In this document: in pieces, positions 3,527 to 24,428 of the stretch | How positions within the stretch are numbered: the first letter of the stretch is position 1 | Layout of the letters: each line of letters starts with the position of its first letter | IMG/VR virus record: IMGVR_UViG_2513237361_000005 | Strand: one strand, 5' to 3' | Origin: a virus | Lineage: Duplodnaviria > Heunggongvirae > Uroviricota > Caudoviricetes | DNA: 29,840 bases | Made by a program: the position numbers and the translations under genes | The notes under the pieces: model-generated | What the model was told of the DNA's origin: nothing | What the model saw: only the letters and a program-made list of their open reading frames with translations | The model's database searches: none

Positions 3527-5801
3527 AGCCTCCGGGCGTTTTGTCCCTCCGTCAGCATTTGCCGCAGGCACCGGTAAGGCGTTTACCGGTGCTTATGCAT
3601 GGAACGCGCCACGCGAGGCCGTCGGGCGCGAAAGACCCCTTACACGTGACGAGATGCGTCAGGTGCAAGGTGTTTTATCCACGATTAACCGCCTGCCTTA
3701 CTTTTTGCGCTCGCTGTTTACTTCACGCTATGACTACATCCGGCGCAATAAAAGCCCGGTGCACGGGTTTTATTTCCTCACATCCACTTTTCAGCGTCGT
3801 TTATGGCCGCGCATTGAGCGTGTGAATCAGCGCCATGAAATGAACACCGACGCGTCGTTGCTGTTTCTGGCAGAGCGTGACCACTATGCGCGCCTGCCGG
3901 GAATGAATGACAAGGAGCTGAAAAAGTTTGCCGCCCGTATCTCATCACAGCTTTTCATGATGTATGAGGAACTCTGCGATGCCTGGGTGGATGCGCATGG
4001 CGAAAAAGAATCGCTGTTTACGGATGAGGCGCAGGCACATCTGTATGGTCATGTTGCTGGCGCTGCACGTGCTTTCAATATTTCCCCTCTCTACTGGAAA
4101 AAATACCGTAAAGGGCAGATGACCACGAGGCAGGCATATTCTGCCATTGCCCGTCTGTTTAACGATGAGTGGTGGATTAGTCAGCTTAAAGGCCAGCGTA
4201 TGCGCTGGCATGAGGCGTTACTGATTGCTGTCGGGGAGGTCAATAAAGACCGTTCTCCTTATGCCAGTAAACATGCCATTCGTGATGTGCGTGCGCGCCG
4301 CCAGGCAAATCTGGAGTTTCTTAAATCGTGTGACCTTGAAAACAGGGAAACCGGCGAGCGCATCGACCTTATCAGTAAGGTGATGGGCAGTATTTCTAAT
4401 CCTGAAATTCGCCGGATGGAGCTGATGAACACCATTGCCGGTATTGAGCGTTACGCCGCTGCAGAGGGTGATGTGGGGATGTTTATCACGCTGACCGCGC
4501 CGTCAAAGTATCACCCGACACGTCAGGTCGGAAAAGGCGAAAGTAAAACCGTGCAGCTTAATCACGGCTGGAACGATGAGGCATTTAATCCAAAGGATGC
4601 GCAGCGTTATCTCTGCCGTATCTGGAGCCTGATGCGCACGGCATTCAAGGATAATGATTTACAGGTCTACGGTTTGCGTGTCGTCGAGCCACACCACGAC
4701 GGAACGCCGCACTGGCATATGATGCTTTTTTGTAATCCACGCCAGCGTAACCAGATTATCGAAATCATGCGTCGCTATGCGCTCAAAGAGGATGGCGACG
4801 AAAGAGGAGCCGCGCGAAACCGTTTTCAGGCAAAACATCTTAACCGGGGCGGTGCTGCGGGGTATATCGCGAAATACATCTCAAAAAATATCGACGGCTA
4901 TGCACTGGATGGGCTGCTCGATAACGATACCGGCAGGCCGCTGAAAGATACTGCCGCGGCTGTTACCGCATGGGCGTCAACGTGGCGTATTCCGCAATTT
5001 AAAACGGTTGGCCTGCCGACAATGGGGGCTTACCGTGAACTACGCAAATTGCCTCGCGGCGTCAGCATTGCTGATGAGTTTGACGAGCGCGTCGAGGCTG
5101 CACGCGCCGCCGCAGACAGTGGTGATTTTGCGCTGTATATCAGCGCGCAGGGCGGGGCAAATGTCCCGCGCGATTGTCAGACTGTCAGGGTCGCCCGTAG
5201 TCCGTCGGATGACGTTAACGAGTACGAGGAAGAAGTCGAGAGAGTGGTCGGCATTTACGCGCCGCATCTCGGCGCGCGTCATATTCATATCACCAGAACC
5301 ACGGACTGGCGCATTGTGCCGAAAGTGCCGGTCGTTGAGCCTTTGACTTTAAAAAGCGGCATCGCCGCGCCTCGGAGTCCTGTCAATAACTGTGGAAAGC
5401 TCACCGGTGGTGATACTTCGTTACCGGCTCCCACACCTTCTGAACACGCCGCAGCAGTGCTTAATCTGGTTGATGATGGTGTTATCGAATGGAATGACCC
5501 GGAGGTCGTGAGGGCGCTCAGGGGCGCATTAAAACACGACCTGAGAACACCAAACCGTCAGCAAAGAAACGGAAGCCCGTTAAAACCACATGAAATTGCA
5601 CCATCGGCCAGACTGACCCGGTCGGAAAGAATGCAAATTACCCGTATCCGCGTTGACCTTGCTCAGAACGGTATCAGGCCGCAGCGATGGGAGCTTGAGG
5701 CGCTGGCGCGTGGCGCGACCGTAAATTATGACGGGAAAAAATTCACGTATCCGGTCGCTGATGAGTGGCCGGGATTCTCAACAGTAATGGAGTGGAGATG
5801 A
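3516..5801 (+). CDS. A: replication initiation endonuclease gpA (rolling-circle Rep, HUH class)
   Basis: Starting at ATG 3516 gives 761 aa, the P2 gpA length. Contains an HUH-type motif (PHWHMMLF) and a tyrosine pair (AGYIAKYISK) typical of rolling-circle initiators. Confidence 0.9.
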   Translation: MAVKASGRFVPPSAFAAGTGKAFTGAYAWNAPREAVGRERPLTRDEMRQVQGVLSTINRLPYFLRSLFTSRYDYIRRNKSPVHGFYFLTSTFQRRLWPRIERVNQRHEMNTDASLLFLAERDHYARLPGMNDKELKKFAARISSQLFMMYEELCDAWVDAHGEKESLFTDEAQAHLYGHVAGAARAFNISPLYWKKYRKGQMTTRQAYSAIARLFNDEWWISQLKGQRMRWHEALLIAVGEVNKDRSPYASKHAIRDVRARRQANLEFLKSCDLENRETGERIDLISKVMGSISNPEIRRMELMNTIAGIERYAAAEGDVGMFITLTAPSKYHPTRQVGKGESKTVQLNHGWNDEAFNPKDAQRYLCRIWSLMRTAFKDNDLQVYGLRVVEPHHDGTPHWHMMLFCNPRQRNQIIEIMRRYALKEDGDERGAARNRFQAKHLNRGGAAGYIAKYISKNIDGYALDGLLDNDTGRPLKDTAAAVTAWASTWRIPQFKTVGLPTMGAYRELRKLPRGVSIADEFDERVEAARAAADSGDFALYISAQGGANVPRDCQTVRVARSPSDDVNEYEEEVERVVGIYAPHLGARHIHITRTTDWRIVPKVPVVEPLTLKSGIAAPRSPVNNCGKLTGGDTSLPAPTPSEHAAAVLNLVDDGVIEWNDPEVVRALRGALKHDLRTPNRQQRNGSPLKPHEIAPSARLTRSERMQITRIRVDLAQNGIRPQRWELEALARGATVNYDGKKFTYPVADEWPGFSTVMEWR

Positions 5802-6253
5802 TGGCAAAAATTCACGAGGTAAAGCTGCACGCAAAATATTTCGACCTTGTGCTGGAAGGAAAGAAACGCGCAGAGTTTCGGAAAAATGACCGTAATTATG
5901 AGCACGGGGACACGTTGATTTTGCATGAATGGGTGCAGGGTGTGTATACGGGGCGAAAGGTTGAAGCCCGGATAACAGATGTTACTGACCTGTCAGACTG
6001 GCTGGAAGATTATGTCTTGCTAAGTATTGAGCTGCTTAATACAGGCGCATATGAGATTGTGAACTGGAAAGAACTTAGTGAGCGTGGTCTGGTATTCAGA
6101 ATTAATCATGAAATTATGCATCAGCTCGGCCTTGCTGTTATGTATGAACCAGAGACGGGGATGTCTGGCGGGGCAATGGTTGCCACGGATGGAGCATGGA
6201 ACTATTCAGATGAACAGATGGAGCGTGCACAGCAAAACGGGTGGCTTGGATAA
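5801..6253 (+). CDS. DUF3850/ASCH-like (PUA-fold) protein with an unassigned C-terminal extension
   Basis: Start overlaps the gpA stop. N-terminal about 80 aa (MAKIHEVKLHAKYFDLVLEGKKRAEFRKNDRNYEHGDTLILHEW...) resembles the small DUF3850/ASCH-like proteins common in phages (recognition by eye, unverified). Confidence 0.5.
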   Translation: MAKIHEVKLHAKYFDLVLEGKKRAEFRKNDRNYEHGDTLILHEWVQGVYTGRKVEARITDVTDLSDWLEDYVLLSIELLNTGAYEIVNWKELSERGLVFRINHEIMHQLGLAVMYEPETGMSGGAMVATDGAWNYSDEQMERAQQNGWLG

Positions 6254-6459: not shown

Positions 6460-6682
6460 AGAACGCCGCCAGTCGTGAAACTTGTTTTCAGGGCTGGCGG
6501 GGTTGAACAACGAGCGAAGCGAGGCGTTAGTTGACAGACATATTTTTACTGCGTTGGTGCCGGTTTTTGACGGTTGAAAGGAGTTAGGTTGGAGAGCCAA
6601 CAACTTACAAATATTCAAAAGTAAGCATCCTGTTGCTAACATGAGGTCGATTTTTTATGTGGATGATGCAAAAAGGATAGCT

Positions 6683-7414
6683 ATGGATACTATAATCGCT
6701 TTTCTATCACTCGCTTTTTTCGTTGCTTTCTTCATCGGGTTAATCAAGCCATCACTGGTGCGAATGCCAAACCGCAAACGTGCAAGTGCGGTTTATCTCG
6801 GAGGAGGTTTTGTATTGAGCATAATTGGTTCAATACTCTATCCAACAGAAAAAAGCCAGCCAGTTGCTAAAACTGAAACATCAACCGTTGCAGAACACAA
6901 AGTCCAAAAAACATTCGAATATGGTGAAAAAACACTCAAGGAATATCGGAACGAGTCAAAGAAAACACGACACGATATTGTGAATAGTTACATTGATTTT
7001 AAGGAAGTTCCAGCCACCGCGTCAGATGCGTTTTATGCCTGCATGAGTGAGTATACATTTACCAAAGATGATGAGTTGAAACTCGGTGATGTTCTTGGGT
7101 GGTGCTTTAATGATTATGAAAATGACCCGAATTCACTAAACAATAAAATCAATCTTGATACATTTCAGAGTAATTTTAGTGGTTGGGATGGTTCTTATCG
7201 TCCATTGGAAAAACTAATTAAAGATAATATGAACGATGATTCATCTTATAAACATGTGTCAACGGTATATCATTTGGTTTTGAATAAAGACCCGTACGCT
7301 ATTGTGAAAACTACGTTTCGCGGTACTAATGCTTATGGTGGAGTGGTTAAGCAGACTATAGCTGCGCGCGTCGACATACGAACGGGAGAGGTTGTATCAA
7401 TATTAGATAATTGA
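6683..7414 (+). CDS. cargo membrane protein: two N-terminal transmembrane helices plus about 170-aa soluble domain of unknown function
   Basis: ATG 6683 with AGGA 5 nt upstream; hydrophobic helices TIIAFLSLAFFVAFFIGLI and AVYLGGGFVLSIIGSILY separated by a basic loop (RMPNRKRAS); coding sequence is strongly AT-rich compared with flanking phage genes. Confidence 0.6.
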   Translation: MDTIIAFLSLAFFVAFFIGLIKPSLVRMPNRKRASAVYLGGGFVLSIIGSILYPTEKSQPVAKTETSTVAEHKVQKTFEYGEKTLKEYRNESKKTRHDIVNSYIDFKEVPATASDAFYACMSEYTFTKDDELKLGDVLGWCFNDYENDPNSLNNKINLDTFQSNFSGWDGSYRPLEKLIKDNMNDDSSYKHVSTVYHLVLNKDPYAIVKTTFRGTNAYGGVVKQTIAARVDIRTGEVVSILDN

Positions 7415-7423
7415 TTATAAGCA

Positions 7424-7452
7424 ATGAGTGCTGAATGGTTTTCTGCACTCAT
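7424..7452 (+). other. intergenic hairpin between the two cargo genes (8-bp stem ATGAGTGC/GCACTCAT, 13-nt loop)
   Basis: Perfect inverted repeat read from the sequence; no following U-tract, so more likely a processing or attenuation element than a terminator. Confidence 0.3.
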
Positions 7453-7479
7453 ATAAATATGAATTTTTTAGGTGATGTA

Positions 7480-7992
7480 ATGGAATATCAACTGGATTTA
7501 CAAGAGAATGCTATTGATAGTTTTAATGAAGCTTTAGCAAAGTATGAGTTAGGGCAGAGAGGAGAATTGCGGCAATATAAATTTGCTATCTTGCATTTGT
7601 CACATTTTCTTGAGCTGGTGTTGAAGTTATATATTGTTACAGTAGATGAAAATTTACTGTATTCCGATTGCTATAAACAAATAGCTACAAGAGCAAAGCA
7701 AGAATCAATCAGTCTTTTAGACGCATATAATAAAATTATCGAGGATGGCGTTGATTTAGGAAGGTTCATTGAAGGGAAATCTAAGCCATATACGATAACC
7801 TTAGATCAGGCACTAAACTTTGCTAAGTGTGAGAAATGCGGCATAACTGGGGTTGATTTTGTAGATATTGATTTTTGTAATGATATAGCTTGGATAAAGA
7901 ATTTAAGAAATGATATTGAGCATTATCAATTCAGACTTACTCCTAAAGATGCGCGCTTGTGTATTGGACGCCTCGTCCGGGGGGGTAGCTGA
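7480..7992 (+). CDS. HEPN-like protein segment; probable N-terminal part of a single frameshifted gene spanning 7480-8416
   Basis: ATG 7480 with AGGTGA 5 nt upstream; helical-looking sequence with R-N-D-I-E-H (Rx4H) at 7906-7923, the HEPN signature; the frame terminates immediately after a G7 tract (7979-7985). Confidence 0.55.
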   Translation: MEYQLDLQENAIDSFNEALAKYELGQRGELRQYKFAILHLSHFLELVLKLYIVTVDENLLYSDCYKQIATRAKQESISLLDAYNKIIEDGVDLGRFIEGKSKPYTITLDQALNFAKCEKCGITGVDFVDIDFCNDIAWIKNLRNDIEHYQFRLTPKDARLCIGRLVRGGS

Positions 7993-8416
7993 GTTTATTG
8001 ATATCTTCGATCTTTTTAATCTTGAAGATGAAGTCGGTGCAGATAACTTACAGATATTTCAAACTTTAGCTGATGAATACTCTCATCGGCTCTCTGAAGC
8101 CAAGAAAGAAGTTGAAGAAAGAGAGGCTGAAGCTTTTTATGGGGTTAGGCATAAATTTTATGAATTGGTCGATTGGAAAGTTTATGAATGTCCTGAGTGT
8201 TCTAACGACACAATGATTCCCTCTGATGAGTCTTCTACGGGTTACAAATGCACTTTTTGTCAGAATGAAGATAGTGATGATATTGATGTTGCTTGCGATT
8301 GTTGTGGTGCGCAGGCTCCCAGCAGCGAAATGAGCATTTGGCCAATGGATGATGGTGATGTTGAGTATCGTTGTTACTACTGTTCAGGGCAGTATCAGGC
8401 AGATAAAGACTTTTAA
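7910..8416 (+). CDS. Cys-rich zinc-ribbon segment; probable C-terminal part of the same frameshifted gene
   Basis: Overlaps the upstream ORF by 83 nt in another frame with no convincing Shine-Dalgarno before ATG 7910; contains CPEC-x17-CTFC and CDCC-x23-CYYC Cys pairs (two zinc-ribbon-like modules); AT-rich. Confidence 0.5.
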   Translation: MILSIINSDLLLKMRACVLDASSGGVAEFIDIFDLFNLEDEVGADNLQIFQTLADEYSHRLSEAKKEVEEREAEAFYGVRHKFYELVDWKVYECPECSNDTMIPSDESSTGYKCTFCQNEDSDDIDVACDCCGAQAPSSEMSIWPMDDGDVEYRCYYCSGQYQADKDF

Positions 8417-8498
8417 TTTGCTGTTAACTGCTAGGGATGAAGTTAAAAATCATAGGACTCATCGTTAATTTATACTCAAATTTGTTTGATTTCTGCAT

Positions 8499-8522
8499 TG
8501 CATACAAAAGATGCATTTTTTT
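8499..8522 (+). terminator. weak candidate terminator for the cargo genes (TGCAT/ATGCA stem followed by T7)
   Basis: 5-bp stem with 7-nt loop followed by a run of seven T; the short stem makes this tentative. Confidence 0.25.
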
Positions 8523-8542
8523 GCATGCGTCAGACGTGCCTG

Positions 8543-8564
8543 CTCTGACAGTATATTGTCAGAG
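8543..8564. repeat. perfect inverted repeat CTCTGACA-gtatat-TGTCAGAG near cos
   Basis: 22-bp palindrome read directly; possible protein-binding site in the packaging region or a hairpin. Confidence 0.4.
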
Positions 8565-8622
8565 CTGGCGCGAATCTGGATTGTTCGTGCAACTGCATTA
8601 AAACCGCCCTATGAAGCGGGCG

Positions 8623-18056: not shown

Positions 18057-18692
18057 ATGAACACTCTCGCAAATATTCAGGAACTCGCGCGCGCACTGCG
18101 CAACATGATCCGCTCCGGCATTATCGTCGAAACCGACCTTAATGCCGGTCGCTGCCGTGTGCAGACCGGCGGCATGTGCACCGACTGGCTTCAGTGGCTG
18201 ACCCATCGCGCCGGACGTTCGCGCACATGGTGGGCACCTTCCGTGGGGGAACAGGTGCTGATTCTGGCCGTGGGCGGTGAACTCGACACGGCGTTCGTTC
18301 TGCCGGGGATTTATTCCGGCGATAACCCCGCACCGTCTGCGTCGGCGGATGCCCTGCATATCCGTTTCCCTGACGGGGCGGTGATTGAGTATGAACCTGA
18401 AACCAGTGTACTCACGGTAAGCGGAATTAAAACGGCCAGCGTGACGGCTTCTGATTCTGTTACTGCCACGGTGCCGGTGGTCACGGTGAAAGCATCAACC
18501 CGCGTCACCCTGGACACACCGGAAGTGGTCTGCACTAACAAGCTGACTACCGGCACGCTGGAAGTGCAGAAGGGCGGGACGATGCGCGGCAACATTGAAC
18601 ACACCGGCGGTGAACTCTCATCAAACGGTAAGGTACTGCATACCCATAAACACCCCGGCGACAGCGGCGGCACAACCGGGAGTCCTCTATGA
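18057..18692 (+). CDS. V: baseplate spike/hub protein gpV
   Basis: 211 aa (P2 gpV length); first gene of the baseplate operon. Confidence 0.85.
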   Translation: MNTLANIQELARALRNMIRSGIIVETDLNAGRCRVQTGGMCTDWLQWLTHRAGRSRTWWAPSVGEQVLILAVGGELDTAFVLPGIYSGDNPAPSASADALHIRFPDGAVIEYEPETSVLTVSGIKTASVTASDSVTATVPVVTVKASTRVTLDTPEVVCTNKLTTGTLEVQKGGTMRGNIEHTGGELSSNGKVLHTHKHPGDSGGTTGSPL

Positions 18693-19036
18693 CAGCGCGT
18701 TATCTCGGAATGAATCGCAGTGATGGCCTGACTGTCACTGACCTTGAACATATCAGCCAGAGTATCGGCGATATCCTGCGCACACCGGTCGGCTCACGGG
18801 TGATGCGTCGTGATTACGGCTCGTTGCTGGCGTCAATGATTGACCAGCCGCAGACTCCGGCGCTTGAGTTGCAGATTAAGGTCGCCTGTTACATGGCAGT
18901 GCTGAAATGGGAACCCCGCGTCACCCTGTCATCCGTCACCACTGAGCGCAGTTTTGACGGGCGAATGACGGTCACGTTAACCGGCCAGCACAACGACACC
19001 GGCCAGCCACTTTCGTTAACCATCCCTGTGAGTTGA
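18689..19036 (+). CDS. W: baseplate wedge protein gpW (gp25-like)
   Basis: 115 aa; overlaps the V stop; synteny. Confidence 0.85.
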   Translation: MTARYLGMNRSDGLTVTDLEHISQSIGDILRTPVGSRVMRRDYGSLLASMIDQPQTPALELQIKVACYMAVLKWEPRVTLSSVTTERSFDGRMTVTLTGQHNDTGQPLSLTIPVS

Positions 19037-19040
19037 AACC

Positions 19041-19949
19041 ATGCCGATTATCGACCTGAACCAGCTACCCGCACCGGATGTGGTCGAGGAGCTGGACTTT
19101 GAAACCATTCTTGCCGAACGCAAGGCGACACTGATTTCCCTTTACCCGGAAGACCAGCAGGAGGCGGTCGCCCGTACCCTGACACTGGAATCCGAGCCTC
19201 TCGTCAAACTGCTGGAGGAAAATGCTTATCGCGAGCTTATCTGGCGTCAGCGTGTGAATGAGGCCGCACGGGCGGTGATGCTGGCCTGTGCCGCCGGTAA
19301 TGACCTTGATGTGATTGGTGCCAATTACAACACCACGCGCCTGATTATCACCCCGGCAGATGATTCGACCATCCCGCCGACACCGGCAGTGATGGAGTCT
19401 GACACCGATTATCGTCTGCGTATTCAGCAGGCGTTTGAGGGCTTAAGCGTCGCCGGGTCGGTGGGAGCCTATCAGTATCATGGTCGCAGTGCCGACGGGC
19501 GTATCGCGGATATCTCTGTCACCAGTCCGTCTCCGGCCTGCGTCACCATCTCCGTGCTGTCACGTGAAAATAACGGTGTCGCATCCGAAGACCTGCTGGC
19601 CGTGGTGCGTAACGCCCTGAATGGCGAGGACGTCAGACCGGTGGCCGACCGCGTGACCGTGCAGTCTGCCGCCATCGTTGAATACCAGATAAACGCCACG
19701 CTTTACCTTTACCCTGGCCCCGAAAGCGAACCCATTCGCGCTGCCGCCGTGAAAAAACTGGAAGCGTATATCACGGCACAGCACCGGCTGGGGCGCGACA
19801 TCCGTCTGTCTGCCATTTATGCCGCTTTGCATGTGGAAGGCGTGCAGCGTGTCGAACTGACTGCACCGCTGGCCGACATCGTGCTCAACAGTACGCAGGC
19901 GTCTTTCTGTACCGAATACCGCGTCGTGACCGGAGGCTCGGATGAGTGA
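19041..19949 (+). CDS. J: baseplate protein gpJ
   Basis: 302 aa (P2 gpJ length); synteny. Confidence 0.85.
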   Translation: MPIIDLNQLPAPDVVEELDFETILAERKATLISLYPEDQQEAVARTLTLESEPLVKLLEENAYRELIWRQRVNEAARAVMLACAAGNDLDVIGANYNTTRLIITPADDSTIPPTPAVMESDTDYRLRIQQAFEGLSVAGSVGAYQYHGRSADGRIADISVTSPSPACVTISVLSRENNGVASEDLLAVVRNALNGEDVRPVADRVTVQSAAIVEYQINATLYLYPGPESEPIRAAAVKKLEAYITAQHRLGRDIRLSAIYAALHVEGVQRVELTAPLADIVLNSTQASFCTEYRVVTGGSDE

Positions 19950-20472
19950 TTCGCGCCTGCTGCCGACCGGCTCATCACCGCTTGAAATTGCTGCCGCAAA
20001 AGCCTGTGCGGAAATTGAAAAAACGCCGGTCAGTATTCGTGAGCTGTGGAACCCGGACACCTGTCCGGCAAATCTGCTGCCGTGGCTGGCGTGGGCGTTT
20101 TCGGTCGACAGGTGGGATGAAAAGTGGCCGGAAGCGACAAAACGCGCCGTTATTCGCGATGCCTATTTCATTCATTGTCATAAAGGCACTGTCGGCGCAA
20201 TCCGACGCGTGGTGGAGCCGCTCGGCTATCTCATCAACGTGACGGAGTGGTGGGAAAACAATGACCCGCCCGGCACTTTCCGGCTCGATATTGGTGTACT
20301 GGAAAGCGGCATCACAGAGGAAATGTATCTGGAAATGGAACGGCTGATTGCCGATGCCAAACCCGCAAGTCGCCACCTTATCGGCCTGAACATTATCCAG
20401 GACATTCCCGGCTATCTGTTCGCCGGTGGTGTGGCTTATGACGGCGATGTAATTACGGTTTACCCCGGATAA
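19942..20472 (+). CDS. I: baseplate/tail protein gpI
   Basis: 176 aa; overlaps the J end; synteny. Confidence 0.85.
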   Translation: MSDSRLLPTGSSPLEIAAAKACAEIEKTPVSIRELWNPDTCPANLLPWLAWAFSVDRWDEKWPEATKRAVIRDAYFIHCHKGTVGAIRRVVEPLGYLINVTEWWENNDPPGTFRLDIGVLESGITEEMYLEMERLIADAKPASRHLIGLNIIQDIPGYLFAGGVAYDGDVITVYPG

Positions 20473-20482
20473 GTGAGGAATA

Positions 20483-22573
20483 ATGAGCACAAAATTCAGA
20501 ACCGTTATCACCACTGCCGGTGCAGCAAAGCTGGCAGCGGCAACCGCACCGGGAGGGCGGAAGGTCAACATTACCACGATGGCCGTCGGGGATGGCGGTG
20601 GTAAATTGCCTGTCCCGGATGCCGGACAGACCGGGCTTATTCATGAAGTCTGGCGACATGCGCTGAACAAAATCAGCCAGGACAAACGAAACAGTAATTA
20701 TATTATTGCAGAGCTGGTTATTCCGCCGGAGGTGGGCGGTTTCTGGATGCGTGAGCTTGGCCTGTACGATGATGCGGGAACGTTAATTGCTGTGGCGAAC
20801 ATGGCCGAAAGTTATAAGCCCGCTCTTGCCGAAGGCTCAGGGCGTTCGCAGACCTGCCGCATGGTCATCATCGTCAGCAGTGTGGCCTCAGTGGATCTGA
20901 CCATCGACACCACAACGGTGATGGCGACGCAGGATTACGTTGATGACAAAATTGCAGAGCACGAACAGTCACGACGCCACCCGGACGCCTCACTGACTGC
21001 AAAAGGTTTTACTCAGTTAAGCAGCGCGACCAATAGTGAATCTGAAACGCTGGCTGCAACGCCGAAAGCGGTTAAGGCAGCGTATGACCTTGCTAACGGA
21101 AAATATACCGCTCAGGACGCCAGCACGGGGCGAAAAGGTCTTGTTCAGCTAAGTAGTGCCATCAACAGCGAATCAGAGACGCTCGCAGCAACGCCAAAGG
21201 CAGTTAAGACAGCATATGACCTTGCTAATGGCAAATACACCGCACAGGACGCCACCACAGCGCGAAAAGGTCTTGTCCAGCTCAGTAGCGCCACCAACAG
21301 CGATTCTGAAACGCTTGCGGCAACGCCAAAGGCGGTTAAGACAGCGTATGACCTTGCTAACGGGAAATACACTGCACAGGATGCCACCACGGCGCGGAAA
21401 GGTCTTGTTCAGCTCAGTAGTGCCATCAACAGCGATTCTGAAACGCTGGCTGCAACGCCAAAAGCGGTGAAGTCTGCCTATGATAATGCTGAAAAACGTC
21501 TTCAGAAAGATAAGAACGGTGCGGATATTCCGGGAAAGGATACTTTCACGAAAAATATTGGTGCCTGTCGTGCTTATAGCGGCGCTTTGAGCACCGAAGG
21601 TGGAGACTGGACTACAGCCCAGTTTATTGAGTGGCTTGATTCGGTAGGTGCTTTTAATCACCCATACTGGATGTGTAAAGGCTCCTGGTCATATGCCAAT
21701 AATAAACTTATTACCGATACTGGCTGTGGCAATATTCATCTTGCTGGCGCTGTTATTGAGGTAATGGGCATAAAGTCTGCAATGACTATTCGTATTACCA
21801 CACCAACAACATCAAGCGGTGGGGGCGCTACAAGCGCGCAATTTACTTATATTAACCACGGGGACAACTATGCTCCTGGCTGGCGGCGTGACTGGAACCG
21901 TTACGGCGATTCTATGTCTGGAACTATTAATCAGGATAGTGGAAGCCAGAATGCCTATATGTCTACGGCCTTATGTTCCGGCACCAGAGGCGGCAAAAAA
22001 TATCTCAGAAAGTTTCGTGGTGGAGAAGGAGACACTATCTGGCATGAAACAGTACAGGGCGGGGTAATTCGCTGGGCGACAGGTAATACTGATGCTCAGG
22101 AAGAATTATCACTCAGCTCTGCTTATGGTCTTCGTTCAAGAGGTGAAATTACATCGCTCAGTGCTAATGGTCTGCGCATTGCTTATGGCAATTATGGATT
22201 CTTTATCAGGAATGATGGCGGCAGCACATATTTAATGCTGACGGCCTCTGGCGATAAATTTGGAACATGGAACGGTTTAAGACCGCTGACTATCAATAAC
22301 GCCAATGGCGGAGTGTCAATGGGGCATGGCCTGAGTGTTACTGGACGTGTTAACCCATCAGATTACGGAAATTTTGATTCCCGCTATGTGAAAGATGTTC
22401 GCCTGGGTACGCGTGTTGTTCAGACCATGCAAAAAGGCGTGATGTATGAGAAATCAGGCCATGTAATTACAGGGCTTGGCATTGTCGGCGAAGTTGATGG
22501 CGATGATCCGGCAGTATTCAGACCAATACAAAAATACATTAATGGCACATGGTATAACGTCGCACAGGTGTAA
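20483..22573 (+). CDS. H: tail fiber protein gpH
   Basis: 696 aa; conserved N-terminal baseplate-attachment part, internal tandem repeats, and an AT-richer C-terminal receptor-binding part. Confidence 0.85.
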   Translation: MSTKFRTVITTAGAAKLAAATAPGGRKVNITTMAVGDGGGKLPVPDAGQTGLIHEVWRHALNKISQDKRNSNYIIAELVIPPEVGGFWMRELGLYDDAGTLIAVANMAESYKPALAEGSGRSQTCRMVIIVSSVASVDLTIDTTTVMATQDYVDDKIAEHEQSRRHPDASLTAKGFTQLSSATNSESETLAATPKAVKAAYDLANGKYTAQDASTGRKGLVQLSSAINSESETLAATPKAVKTAYDLANGKYTAQDATTARKGLVQLSSATNSDSETLAATPKAVKTAYDLANGKYTAQDATTARKGLVQLSSAINSDSETLAATPKAVKSAYDNAEKRLQKDKNGADIPGKDTFTKNIGACRAYSGALSTEGGDWTTAQFIEWLDSVGAFNHPYWMCKGSWSYANNKLITDTGCGNIHLAGAVIEVMGIKSAMTIRITTPTTSSGGGATSAQFTYINHGDNYAPGWRRDWNRYGDSMSGTINQDSGSQNAYMSTALCSGTRGGKKYLRKFRGGEGDTIWHETVQGGVIRWATGNTDAQEELSLSSAYGLRSRGEITSLSANGLRIAYGNYGFFIRNDGGSTYLMLTASGDKFGTWNGLRPLTINNANGGVSMGHGLSVTGRVNPSDYGNFDSRYVKDVRLGTRVVQTMQKGVMYEKSGHVITGLGIVGEVDGDDPAVFRPIQKYINGTWYNVAQV
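21002..21484 (+). repeat. in-frame tandem repeats inside H: about 3.7 copies of a 132-bp (44-codon) unit
   Basis: Unit starts at 21002, 21134, 21266 and 21398, each encoding KG(F/L)(T/V)QLSSA(T/I)NS(E/D)SETLAATPKAVK.AYDLANGKYTAQDA..(G/A)R. Confidence 0.75.
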
Positions 22574-22576
22574 TTT

Positions 22577-23104
22577 ATGCAGCATTTAAAAAATATTACT
22601 GCGGGTAATCCCAAAACTGTTGCCCAATATCAACTGACAAAAAATTTTGATGTTATCTGGTTATGGTCTGAAGACGGAAAAAACTGGTATGAGGAAGTAA
22701 GTAATTTTCAGGAAGACACGATAAAGATTGTTTACGACGAGAATAATATAATTGTCGGTATCACCAGAGATGCTTCAACGCTTAACCCTGAAGGTTTTAG
22801 CGTTGCCGAGGTTCCTGATATTACCGCCAACCGACGTGCTGATGACTCAGGTAAATGGATGTTTAAGGATGGTGCCGTGATTAAGCGGATTTATACGGCA
22901 GACGAACAGCAGCAACTGGCAGAATCACAAAAGGCAACTTTACTTTCCGAAGCTGAATCCGTGATTTTGCCGCTGGAGCGCGCTGTCAGGCTGAATATGG
23001 CAACAGATGAGGAGCGCCGCCGACTGGAAGCATGGGAACGCTACAGCGTTCTGGTCAGTCGTGTGGATCCTGCAAATCCTGAATGGCCGGAAATGCCGCA
23101 ATAA
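22577..23104 (+). CDS. G: tail fiber assembly chaperone gpG
   Basis: 175 aa (P2 gpG length), immediately downstream of H; AT-rich like the H 3' end. Confidence 0.8.
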
Positions 23105-23111
23105 ACACAAG

Positions 23112-23139
23112 GCGGGCTTATTGTCCGCTTTTTCTTTAT
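23112..23139 (+). terminator. rho-independent terminator after G
   Basis: GCGGGC-uuauu-GUCCGC stem (one G-U pair) followed by UUUUUCUUU, 8 nt after the G stop. Confidence 0.6.
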
Positions 23140-23237
23140 CGGTGGTTGTGCTGTCGATTAGCCAACCGGGACAAATAGCCTGATATCTCCGGCACAACTG
23201 AAAATACCACTCACCCATTAACCACGGAGTTAAACGG

Positions 23238-24428
23238 ATGAGTGACTATCATCACGGCGTGCAGGTGCTGGAGATTAACGACGGCACCCGCGTCATTTCC
23301 ACCGTATCCACGGCCATTGTCGGCATGGTCTGCACAGCCAGCGATGCGGATGCGGAAACCTTCCCCCTCAATAAACCGGTGCTGATTACCAATGTGCAGA
23401 GCGCAATTGCAAAGGCCGGTAAAAAAGGCACGCTGGCGGCATCGTTGCAGGCCATCGCCGACCAGTCAAAACCGGTCACCGTTGTCGTGCGTGTGGAAGA
23501 CGGCACCGGCGACGACGAGGAAACGAAACTCGCGCAGACCGTTTCCAATATCATCGGCACCACCGACGAAAACGGTCAGTACACCGGACTGAAAGCCCTG
23601 CTGGCGGCGGAGTCGGTAACCGGTGTTAAACCGCGTATTCTCGGCGTGCCGGGACTGGACACCAAAGAGGTGGCTGTTGCACTGGCATCAGTCTGTCAGA
23701 AGTTGCGCGCTTTCGGGTATATCAGCGCATGGGGCTGTAAAACCATTTCCGAGGTGAAAGCCTACCGCCAGAATTTCAGCCAGCGTGAGCTAATGGTCAT
23801 CTGGCCGGATTTCCTCGCATGGGATACGGTCAGCAGCACCACCGCCACCGCGTATGCCACCGCCCGTGCGCTGGGTCTGCGCGCTAAAATCGACCAGGAG
23901 CAGGGCTGGCATAAAACGCTGTCCAACGTCGGGGTAAACGGTGTTACCGGCATCAGTGCGTCCGTATTCTGGGATTTGCAGGAGTCCGGCACCGATGCTG
24001 ACCTGTTGAACGAGTCAGGCGTCACAACGCTGATTCGCCGTGACGGTTTCCGCTTCTGGGGTAACCGTACCTGCTCTGATGACCCGCTGTTCCTCTTTGA
24101 AAACTACACCCGCACCGCGCAGGTGCTGGCCGACACGATGGCTGAGGCGCACATGTGGGCGGTGGACAAGCCCATCACCGCAACGCTGATTCGCGACATC
24201 GTTGACGGCATCAATGCCAAATTCCGTGAGCTGAAAACAAACGGCTATATCGTGGATGCGACCTGCTGGTTCAGCGAAGAATCCAACGATGCGGAAACCC
24301 TCAAGGCCGGAAAACTGTATATCGACTACGACTATACCCCGGTGCCTCCTCTCGAAAACCTGACCCTGCGCCAGCGTATCACCGATAAATACCTGGCAAA
24401 TCTGGTCACCTCGGTTAACAGCAATTAA
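23238..24428 (+). CDS. FI: contractile tail sheath protein gpFI
   Basis: 396 aa (P2 FI length); followed by the tube gene. Confidence 0.9.
   Translation: MSDYHHGVQVLEINDGTRVISTVSTAIVGMVCTASDADAETFPLNKPVLITNVQSAIAKAGKKGTLAASLQAIADQSKPVTVVVRVEDGTGDDEETKLAQTVSNIIGTTDENGQYTGLKALLAAESVTGVKPRILGVPGLDTKEVAVALASVCQKLRAFGYISAWGCKTISEVKAYRQNFSQRELMVIWPDFLAWDTVSSTTATAYATARALGLRAKIDQEQGWHKTLSNVGVNGVTGISASVFWDLQESGTDADLLNESGVTTLIRRDGFRFWGNRTCSDDPLFLFENYTRTAQVLADTMAEAHMWAVDKPITATLIRDIVDGINAKFRELKTNGYIVDATCWFSEESNDAETLKAGKLYIDYDYTPVPPLENLTLRQRITDKYLANLVTSVNSN

Follow-up and report, generated by a model that had tools for sequence, protein, structure and literature searches.

Whole-unit variation of a PF03406 repeat array in the tail fibre gene H of a P2-like prophage

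The phage tail fibre repeat PF03406 (IPR005068), its occurrence in the fibres of P2, Mu and lambda-type phages and the mosaic nature of the genes that carry it are long established, and the variation of its copy number between related phages is likewise already known. One report portrays the gpH of L-413C as a mosaic formed by recombination (PMC7460101, citing Garcia et al. 2008). A related kind of variation is found in the side tail fibres EPclA/B of lambdoid prophages, which vary in length in their collagen-like and coiled-coil segments (PMC3368898). In the literature mentioning PF03406 we found no description of the structure of the repeat, and the family is listed among those repeat families for which contact-based and homology models did not agree (PMC8078820); in the literature on P2 fibre engineering and on Mu cryo-EM the repeat segment is not resolved.

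Here, we analyze a stretch of 29,840 nucleotides (hereafter the window) comprising a Peduovirus (P2-like) prophage from the integrase to the ogr end, 92% of which is covered by the Yersinia phage GMS190 at 97% identity. Its tail fibre gene H contains a tandem array that we interpret, with a probability of roughly 0.85, as four PF03406 units, three full and one truncated, which lie between the gpH attachment domain and an exchangeable C-terminal receptor-binding region and which change in number by whole units.

The P2-type fibre gene and its neighbourhood

The sequence-only reading had named the gene harbouring the array as tail fibre gene H, an identification upheld by the PF12571 domain, by DNA similarity to P2 H and by the gene order W-J-I-H-G-FI, the first two ORFs of which lie at 18689-19036 and 19041-19949. 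The protein matches phrog_381 ('tail fiber protein') with an E-value of 9e-260, its megablast matches are the H genes of Peduovirus phages, and 51% of its DNA aligns with P2 H, at 88.6% identity. PF12571 covers the N-terminal domain over profile positions 1-150 of 150 (E 2.6e-58), and PF03406 matches the protein in four stretches with 265.3 bits against a cut-off of 22 (E 1.1e-80). Further, PF21446, the gp34 trimerisation domain, is found at residues 540-604 within the C-terminal region (Table 1), which is presumed to be the receptor-binding tip. The C-terminal half is itself a composite, Mu S'-like over residues 334-484 and similar to Mu S and T4 gp34 over residues 519-695. Genes W, J, I and G match their P2 counterparts in length, G lies directly downstream of H in the same position as P2 G, and the order W-J-I-H-G with the corresponding Pfam labels recurs in a further locus (L017). 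Thus, full coverage by PF12571, the position in the operon and the PF02413 chaperone gene downstream all place the protein with the P2 gpH type.

Table 1. Gene H of the window, the parts of its product and the adjoining features
Feature	Coordinates	Strand	Residues of H	Basis or remark
Gene I, baseplate protein, directly upstream of H	19942..20472	+		PF09684 Tail_P2_I, E 2.9e-55
Gene H, P2-type tail fibre protein of 696 aa, holds the array	20483..22573	+		ORF, Pfam, phrog_381, megablast
N-terminal 'tail-collar fibre' domain, conserved baseplate-proximal part	20483..20935	+	1-151	PF12571
Repeat unit 1	20999..21130	+	173-216	Diverged copy of the first-position unit type
Repeat unit 2	21131..21262	+	217-260	Atypical 'AINSESE' variant
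Repeat unit 3	21263..21394	+	261-304	
Repeat unit 4, truncated terminal unit	21395..21484	+	305-334	
Antisense ORF of 162 aa through the repeats	21173..21661	-		By-product, not a gene
Distal fibre region, Mu S'-like	21482..21934	+	334-484	PDB chain 8ju3_A, stretch E 1.5e-69
C-terminal region like Mu S and the T4 gp34 trimerisation domain	22037..22567	+	519-695	5yvq_A, 4uxe_A
Gene G, tail fibre assembly chaperone, partner of the H C-terminus	22577..23104	+		PF02413 Caudo_TAP, E 3.9e-34
FI, sheath gene, downstream of G	23238-24428			Pfam

A sequence search of the PDB returned only Mu S/S' and T4 gp34, which match over the last unit and the C-terminus, and no solved structure for the N-terminal domain or for a multi-unit array. 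AlphaFold2 monomer models of residues 141-379 reached a mean pLDDT of 40.3 for the sequence alone and 42.2 with a 23-sequence alignment and are unusable as structures; a weak per-unit pattern of a short strand, a loop and a helix over PKAVKxAYDLANGK carries no weight here. From what is generally known of trimeric fibre shafts, each unit would add a fixed length to the homotrimeric shaft, such that the number of units would set its reach.

Several other features of the prophage deserve mention. The interval between G and FI (23105-23237) spans only 133 bp and is without cargo, whereas P2 has fun(Z) there and many relatives have other genes at this spot. An ORF of 162 aa following gene A (5765-6253, plus strand) combines DUF3850/ASCH and DUF7415 domains. 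A cargo segment at 6531-8586 is missing from GMS190, the closest phage record, and sits at the position of P2 tin/old, a known hotspot for anti-phage genes. Within it, an ORF at 6641-7414 (257 aa) matches phrog_3403, of unknown function, without a Pfam or PADLOC match. Two overlapping plus-strand ORFs follow (7435-7992 and 7910-8416), which match positions 1-168 and 165-311 of phrog_20824 (311 aa) and also the two halves of the PADLOC defence candidate PDC-S64. Judging from these matches, 7435-8416 looks like a single gene of ~311 aa interrupted by a frameshift; seven consecutive Gs (~7971-7977) lie just ahead of the stop of the first ORF, and the frameshift could be a sequencing error, a pseudogene mutation or phase variation.

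Unit structure, divergence and copy number

Tandem Repeats Finder, applied to the whole window, recovered a single strong array at 21001-21483 with a period of 132, 3.7 copies, 84% matches and 0% indels (score 658), the nine remaining rows scoring only 30-37. The periodicity first noticed in the letters of H is confirmed by self-comparison of 20900-21600, in which the match fraction peaks at lags of 132 (0.65), 264 (0.57) and 396 (0.47), against a median of 0.25 for the remaining lags; inside the array the match at lag 132 rises to 0.84, while 1000 codon-shuffled controls reach at most 0.40. The period of 132 bp corresponds to 44 codons, and the array is in frame with H throughout. The individual units differ in their affinities. 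Unit 1 finds its best matches in unit 1 of other phages (87-90%). Unit 2 has at most 89% identity to every unit of the 15 compared genes and clusters with none, its peptide being also present in a database protein (P0115), and the core of unit 3 is 100% identical to the third of the four units in E. coli DETEC-S792. The homology of unit 4 to the other units stops after '...TPKAVKSAYD', where the C-terminal module starts, and this terminal unit together with its junction is also found in Mu S.

A further claim, that only a few substitutions separate the copies, holds for the peptide and fails for the DNA: of the 44 residues, only 2 distinguish units 2 and 3 and 6 separate unit 1 from each of these, whereas the full units differ at 16-28 of their 132 nt. 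Across the 90 nt shared by all units the identity is 77-88%, and third codon positions account for 49 of the 69 pairwise differences among units 1-3 (71%). The units of the window are separated by a dS of 0.63-1.16, with a dN/dS of 0.03-0.15; the peptide of the units is under strong purifying selection while the DNA has diverged. By comparison, the dS of the N-terminal domain against its orthologues in other Peduovirus H genes is ~0.1, and since the between-unit values are far greater, the duplications long predate the split between these phages. Units 1, 3 and 4 of the window have positional orthologues in other phages. This clustering by position across phages, together with the dS and dN/dS values, argues that the units are old paralogues and not a recent unstable expansion. 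The same clustering across genomes led us to reject concerted evolution of the units.

We then counted units in the H genes of 15 phages and prophages alongside the window, all of which share the 44-aa period. P2, Wphi and P2_AC1 have two units; P37, fiAA91-ss, PsP3, E. coli ES5, STW0522-31 and YZ22PE244 have three; and the window, vB_YpM_46, 12474III, P2_2H4, E. coli S10, DETEC-S792 and LR-71-1 have four, in agreement with the expectation that the repeat number would differ between related prophages (2, 3 or 4 units in the 16 compared genes). The H of GMS190 likewise has four units once its record is circularised. A protein search with residues 1-347 of H found 6851 relatives, and unit counts were taken from the best 120 of these, a census that leans to high counts because the query itself had four units. 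Among these best 120 of 6851 matches, some H proteins have 5 or 6 units. Clusters that reach 95% identity or more to the N-terminal domain of the window comprise, by motif count, 2 with two units, 36 with three, 39 with four and 1 with five. Four units are a common, mid-range allele. Beyond H, a search with one 44-aa unit against 1.84 billion cluster representatives retrieved 1511 proteins at E <=0.001; in enterobacterial fibres whose N-termini are of other kinds the number of units rises to 11-12, and one protein of 3377 aa has 19 matched PF03406 stretches.

How these numbers change is best illustrated by two E. coli prophages: the H gene of ES5 equals that of S10 minus exactly one 132-nt unit, with 1955 of 1959 nt identical and a junction that may lie at any point of H nt 837-852, where the two units share their sequence. 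This pair supports the idea that the array expands and contracts by whole units, with the caveat that the ES5 assembly has a frameshifted gene I and that its 132-bp difference could in principle be an assembly collapse. A second line comes from DNA clustering of all units, which groups them by position and not by genome: four-unit arrays read a-b-c-d, P2-type arrays a-e, and three-unit arrays either a-b-d (P37, ES5, YZ22) or a-c-d (STW, fiAA91-ss). As different units are absent in different lineages, several independent whole-unit events are required. Units would be gained and lost by in-register unequal recombination or by slippage between units. Between units of the window no exact in-register match exceeds 23 nt, whereas other alleles have exact runs of up to 81 nt (E. 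coli LR-71-1). A length of 23 nt lies at the lower bound commonly given for RecA-dependent recombination, and for this reason the window array may be comparatively stable. Thus, of the mutability that had been read into the repeats, the whole-unit changes stand, whereas the implied instability was overstated, the units of the window being old, diverged paralogues.

Alternative readings of the array

The part of H around the array is a patchwork. Against its closest relatives the window shows 95-100% nucleotide identity in the N-terminal domain and only 79-91% in units 1-2. Against the H of E. coli S10 it is 100% identical from ~nt 1250 to the stop (the last ~840 nt), and identity falls to 79-92% in nt 460-790 and 1050-1250. 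These alternations indicate recombination patches of a few hundred bp inside H and, as judged from the alignments, a fine-scale mosaicism centred on the array. Moreover, H genes with different C-termini part ways inside or just past the conserved core TPKAVK of the terminal unit, in keeping with the established view that recombination has made mosaics of tail fibre genes; P2, Mu S and the window diverge directly after this core. This core may double as a homology patch for the swapping of receptor-binding modules in fibres of the P2, Mu and lambda type.

Taken further, the same observations could mean that the repeats are mainly conserved homology 'linkers' for the exchange of C-terminal modules and that the number of units is mostly a neutral consequence of such exchanges. 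In P2, the window, P2_2H4 and the database proteins P0067, P0086, P0115 and P0120, quite different C-termini follow one and the same repeat core, which is also common to Mu S and to fibres with unrelated N-termini (P0122, P0124); the divergence points at or directly after TPKAVK, the centring of the mosaic patches on the array and the description of L-413C gpH cited above point the same way. Yet selection for DNA homology predicts the opposite of what is seen in the units, namely a strongly constrained peptide (dN/dS 0.03-0.15) and DNA free to diverge, and one unit would be enough as a linker where 3-6 are kept. We give this reading somewhat less than even odds; it is compatible with, and not exclusive of, an array of PF03406 units that changes by whole units. 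A more elaborate proposal, which we regard as speculative and rather unlikely, is that the synonymous divergence between units was selected to suppress their recombinational loss, the unit number being an adaptive 'reach' matched to the thickness of the O-antigen or capsule. If this were true, homogenised alleles such as that of LR-71-1, with its 81-nt run, would be transient, and alleles like that of the window (23 nt) would be stabilised.

It is very improbable, on the other hand, that the array is a recent unstable expansion of the contingency-locus type or a product of faulty assembly. The variation of unit number between close relatives would suit such an explanation, as would the behaviour of short-read assemblies, which break here: the GMS190 record starts and ends within unit 3, and a large share of the database H proteins among the matches listed are 'partial'. 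However, the 16-28 differences per 132 nt and the dS of 0.6-1.2 are several-fold greater than the orthologous divergence of the flanking domain, units 1, 3 and 4 have positional orthologues elsewhere, and units so diverged are individually distinguishable in reads. Relative to a hypermutable contingency locus, the array has a longest exact run of only 23 nt, a between-unit dS of 0.6-1.2 and a period divisible by 3; given the latter, unit changes cause no frame switching and cannot turn the gene off. As to assembly, records of exactly this 696-aa protein exist on six contigs, including two of >1 Mb, which makes an artefact, and hence a collapse or expansion of the array, unlikely; four-unit alleles are also present in many complete genomes. 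In GCA_020775175.1, 8091 nt around H are identical to the window. Among complete E. coli genomes there was no exact match to H, the best full-length DNA match being that of strain S10 (95.7%). The GMS190 record (OP880302.2, 'UNVERIFIED', linear) has its ends, 1 and 29462, inside unit 3 of H; they are an assembly break caused by the repeat and not the end of the genome, and joining them into a circle gives an intact four-unit H.

The chance that the opposite-strand or other-frame ORFs over the array encode real overlapping proteins is lower still, and we consider it negligible. In its favour, nearly every relative keeps the antisense frame that is codon-aligned with H open along the array. Because of that alignment, however, it can be broken only where H uses the codons TTA, CTA or TCA. 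Its open length merely scales with the number of units, at 74, ~179 and 223 codons for 2, 3 and 4 units, and in the window it is shortened relative to S10 by the synonymous H codons CTA-223 and TCA-231. Substitutions concentrate at the third positions of H, which are the first positions of that antisense frame. In Pfam, none of the ORFs at 21173-21661 (-), 21145-21390 (-) and 21156-21470 (+) had a family match above the curated threshold. With no family and a length that follows the repeat number, these ORFs were rejected as genes, in keeping with the view that the repeats generate spurious antisense ORFs, and antisense ORFs over this array in P2-like H genes should not be annotated.

Comparison with known fibre systems

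The array is no new kind of element. It serves as an example of a modular fibre in which whole 44-residue units come and go and the conserved repeat core is where receptor-binding tips would be swapped, and it explains the frequent fragmentation and 'partial' labels of P2-like H genes in short-read assemblies. It is also useful for the engineering of P2 or R-pyocin-type fibres, where fusion points are usually chosen.

With tandem 44-aa units beginning at residues 173, 217, 261 and 305 of a tail fibre protein, the array falls squarely within PF03406: all four units match the family, the best stretch covering 1-41 of its 42 positions, and they share the signature K-G-x-V-Q-L-S-S-A-T-N-S-x-S-E-T-L-A-A-T-P-K-A-V-K. 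The differences from the family are limited to units 1 and 2, which have the minor variants 'NSESE' and 'AINSESE' in place of the common 'ATNSTSE', with nothing else substantive. Like the window array, the shafts of EPclA/B have a segment that varies between prophages in whole structural periods, and in EPclB a PF03406 unit lies between two collagen segments; the periods there are 3 residues (collagen) or 7 (coiled coil), whereas in the window the unit is 44 residues (PMC3368898). Mu S (PDB 5yvq, 9ki1 and 8ju3 for S / S') has just one PF03406-type unit, after which comes the '...AVKxAxDNAxxRLxKDxNGADIP' junction also seen in the window; besides the unit number, the N-terminal baseplate-attachment region of Mu is different. 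P2 gpH itself (NP_046775, 669 aa) and the other Peduovirus H proteins share with the window the N-terminal domain, the W-J-I-H-G order, the first unit and the 44-aa period; P2 gpH has 2 units and another C-terminal region from residue ~243, whereas the window combines 4 units with a Mu S/S'-like C-terminus.
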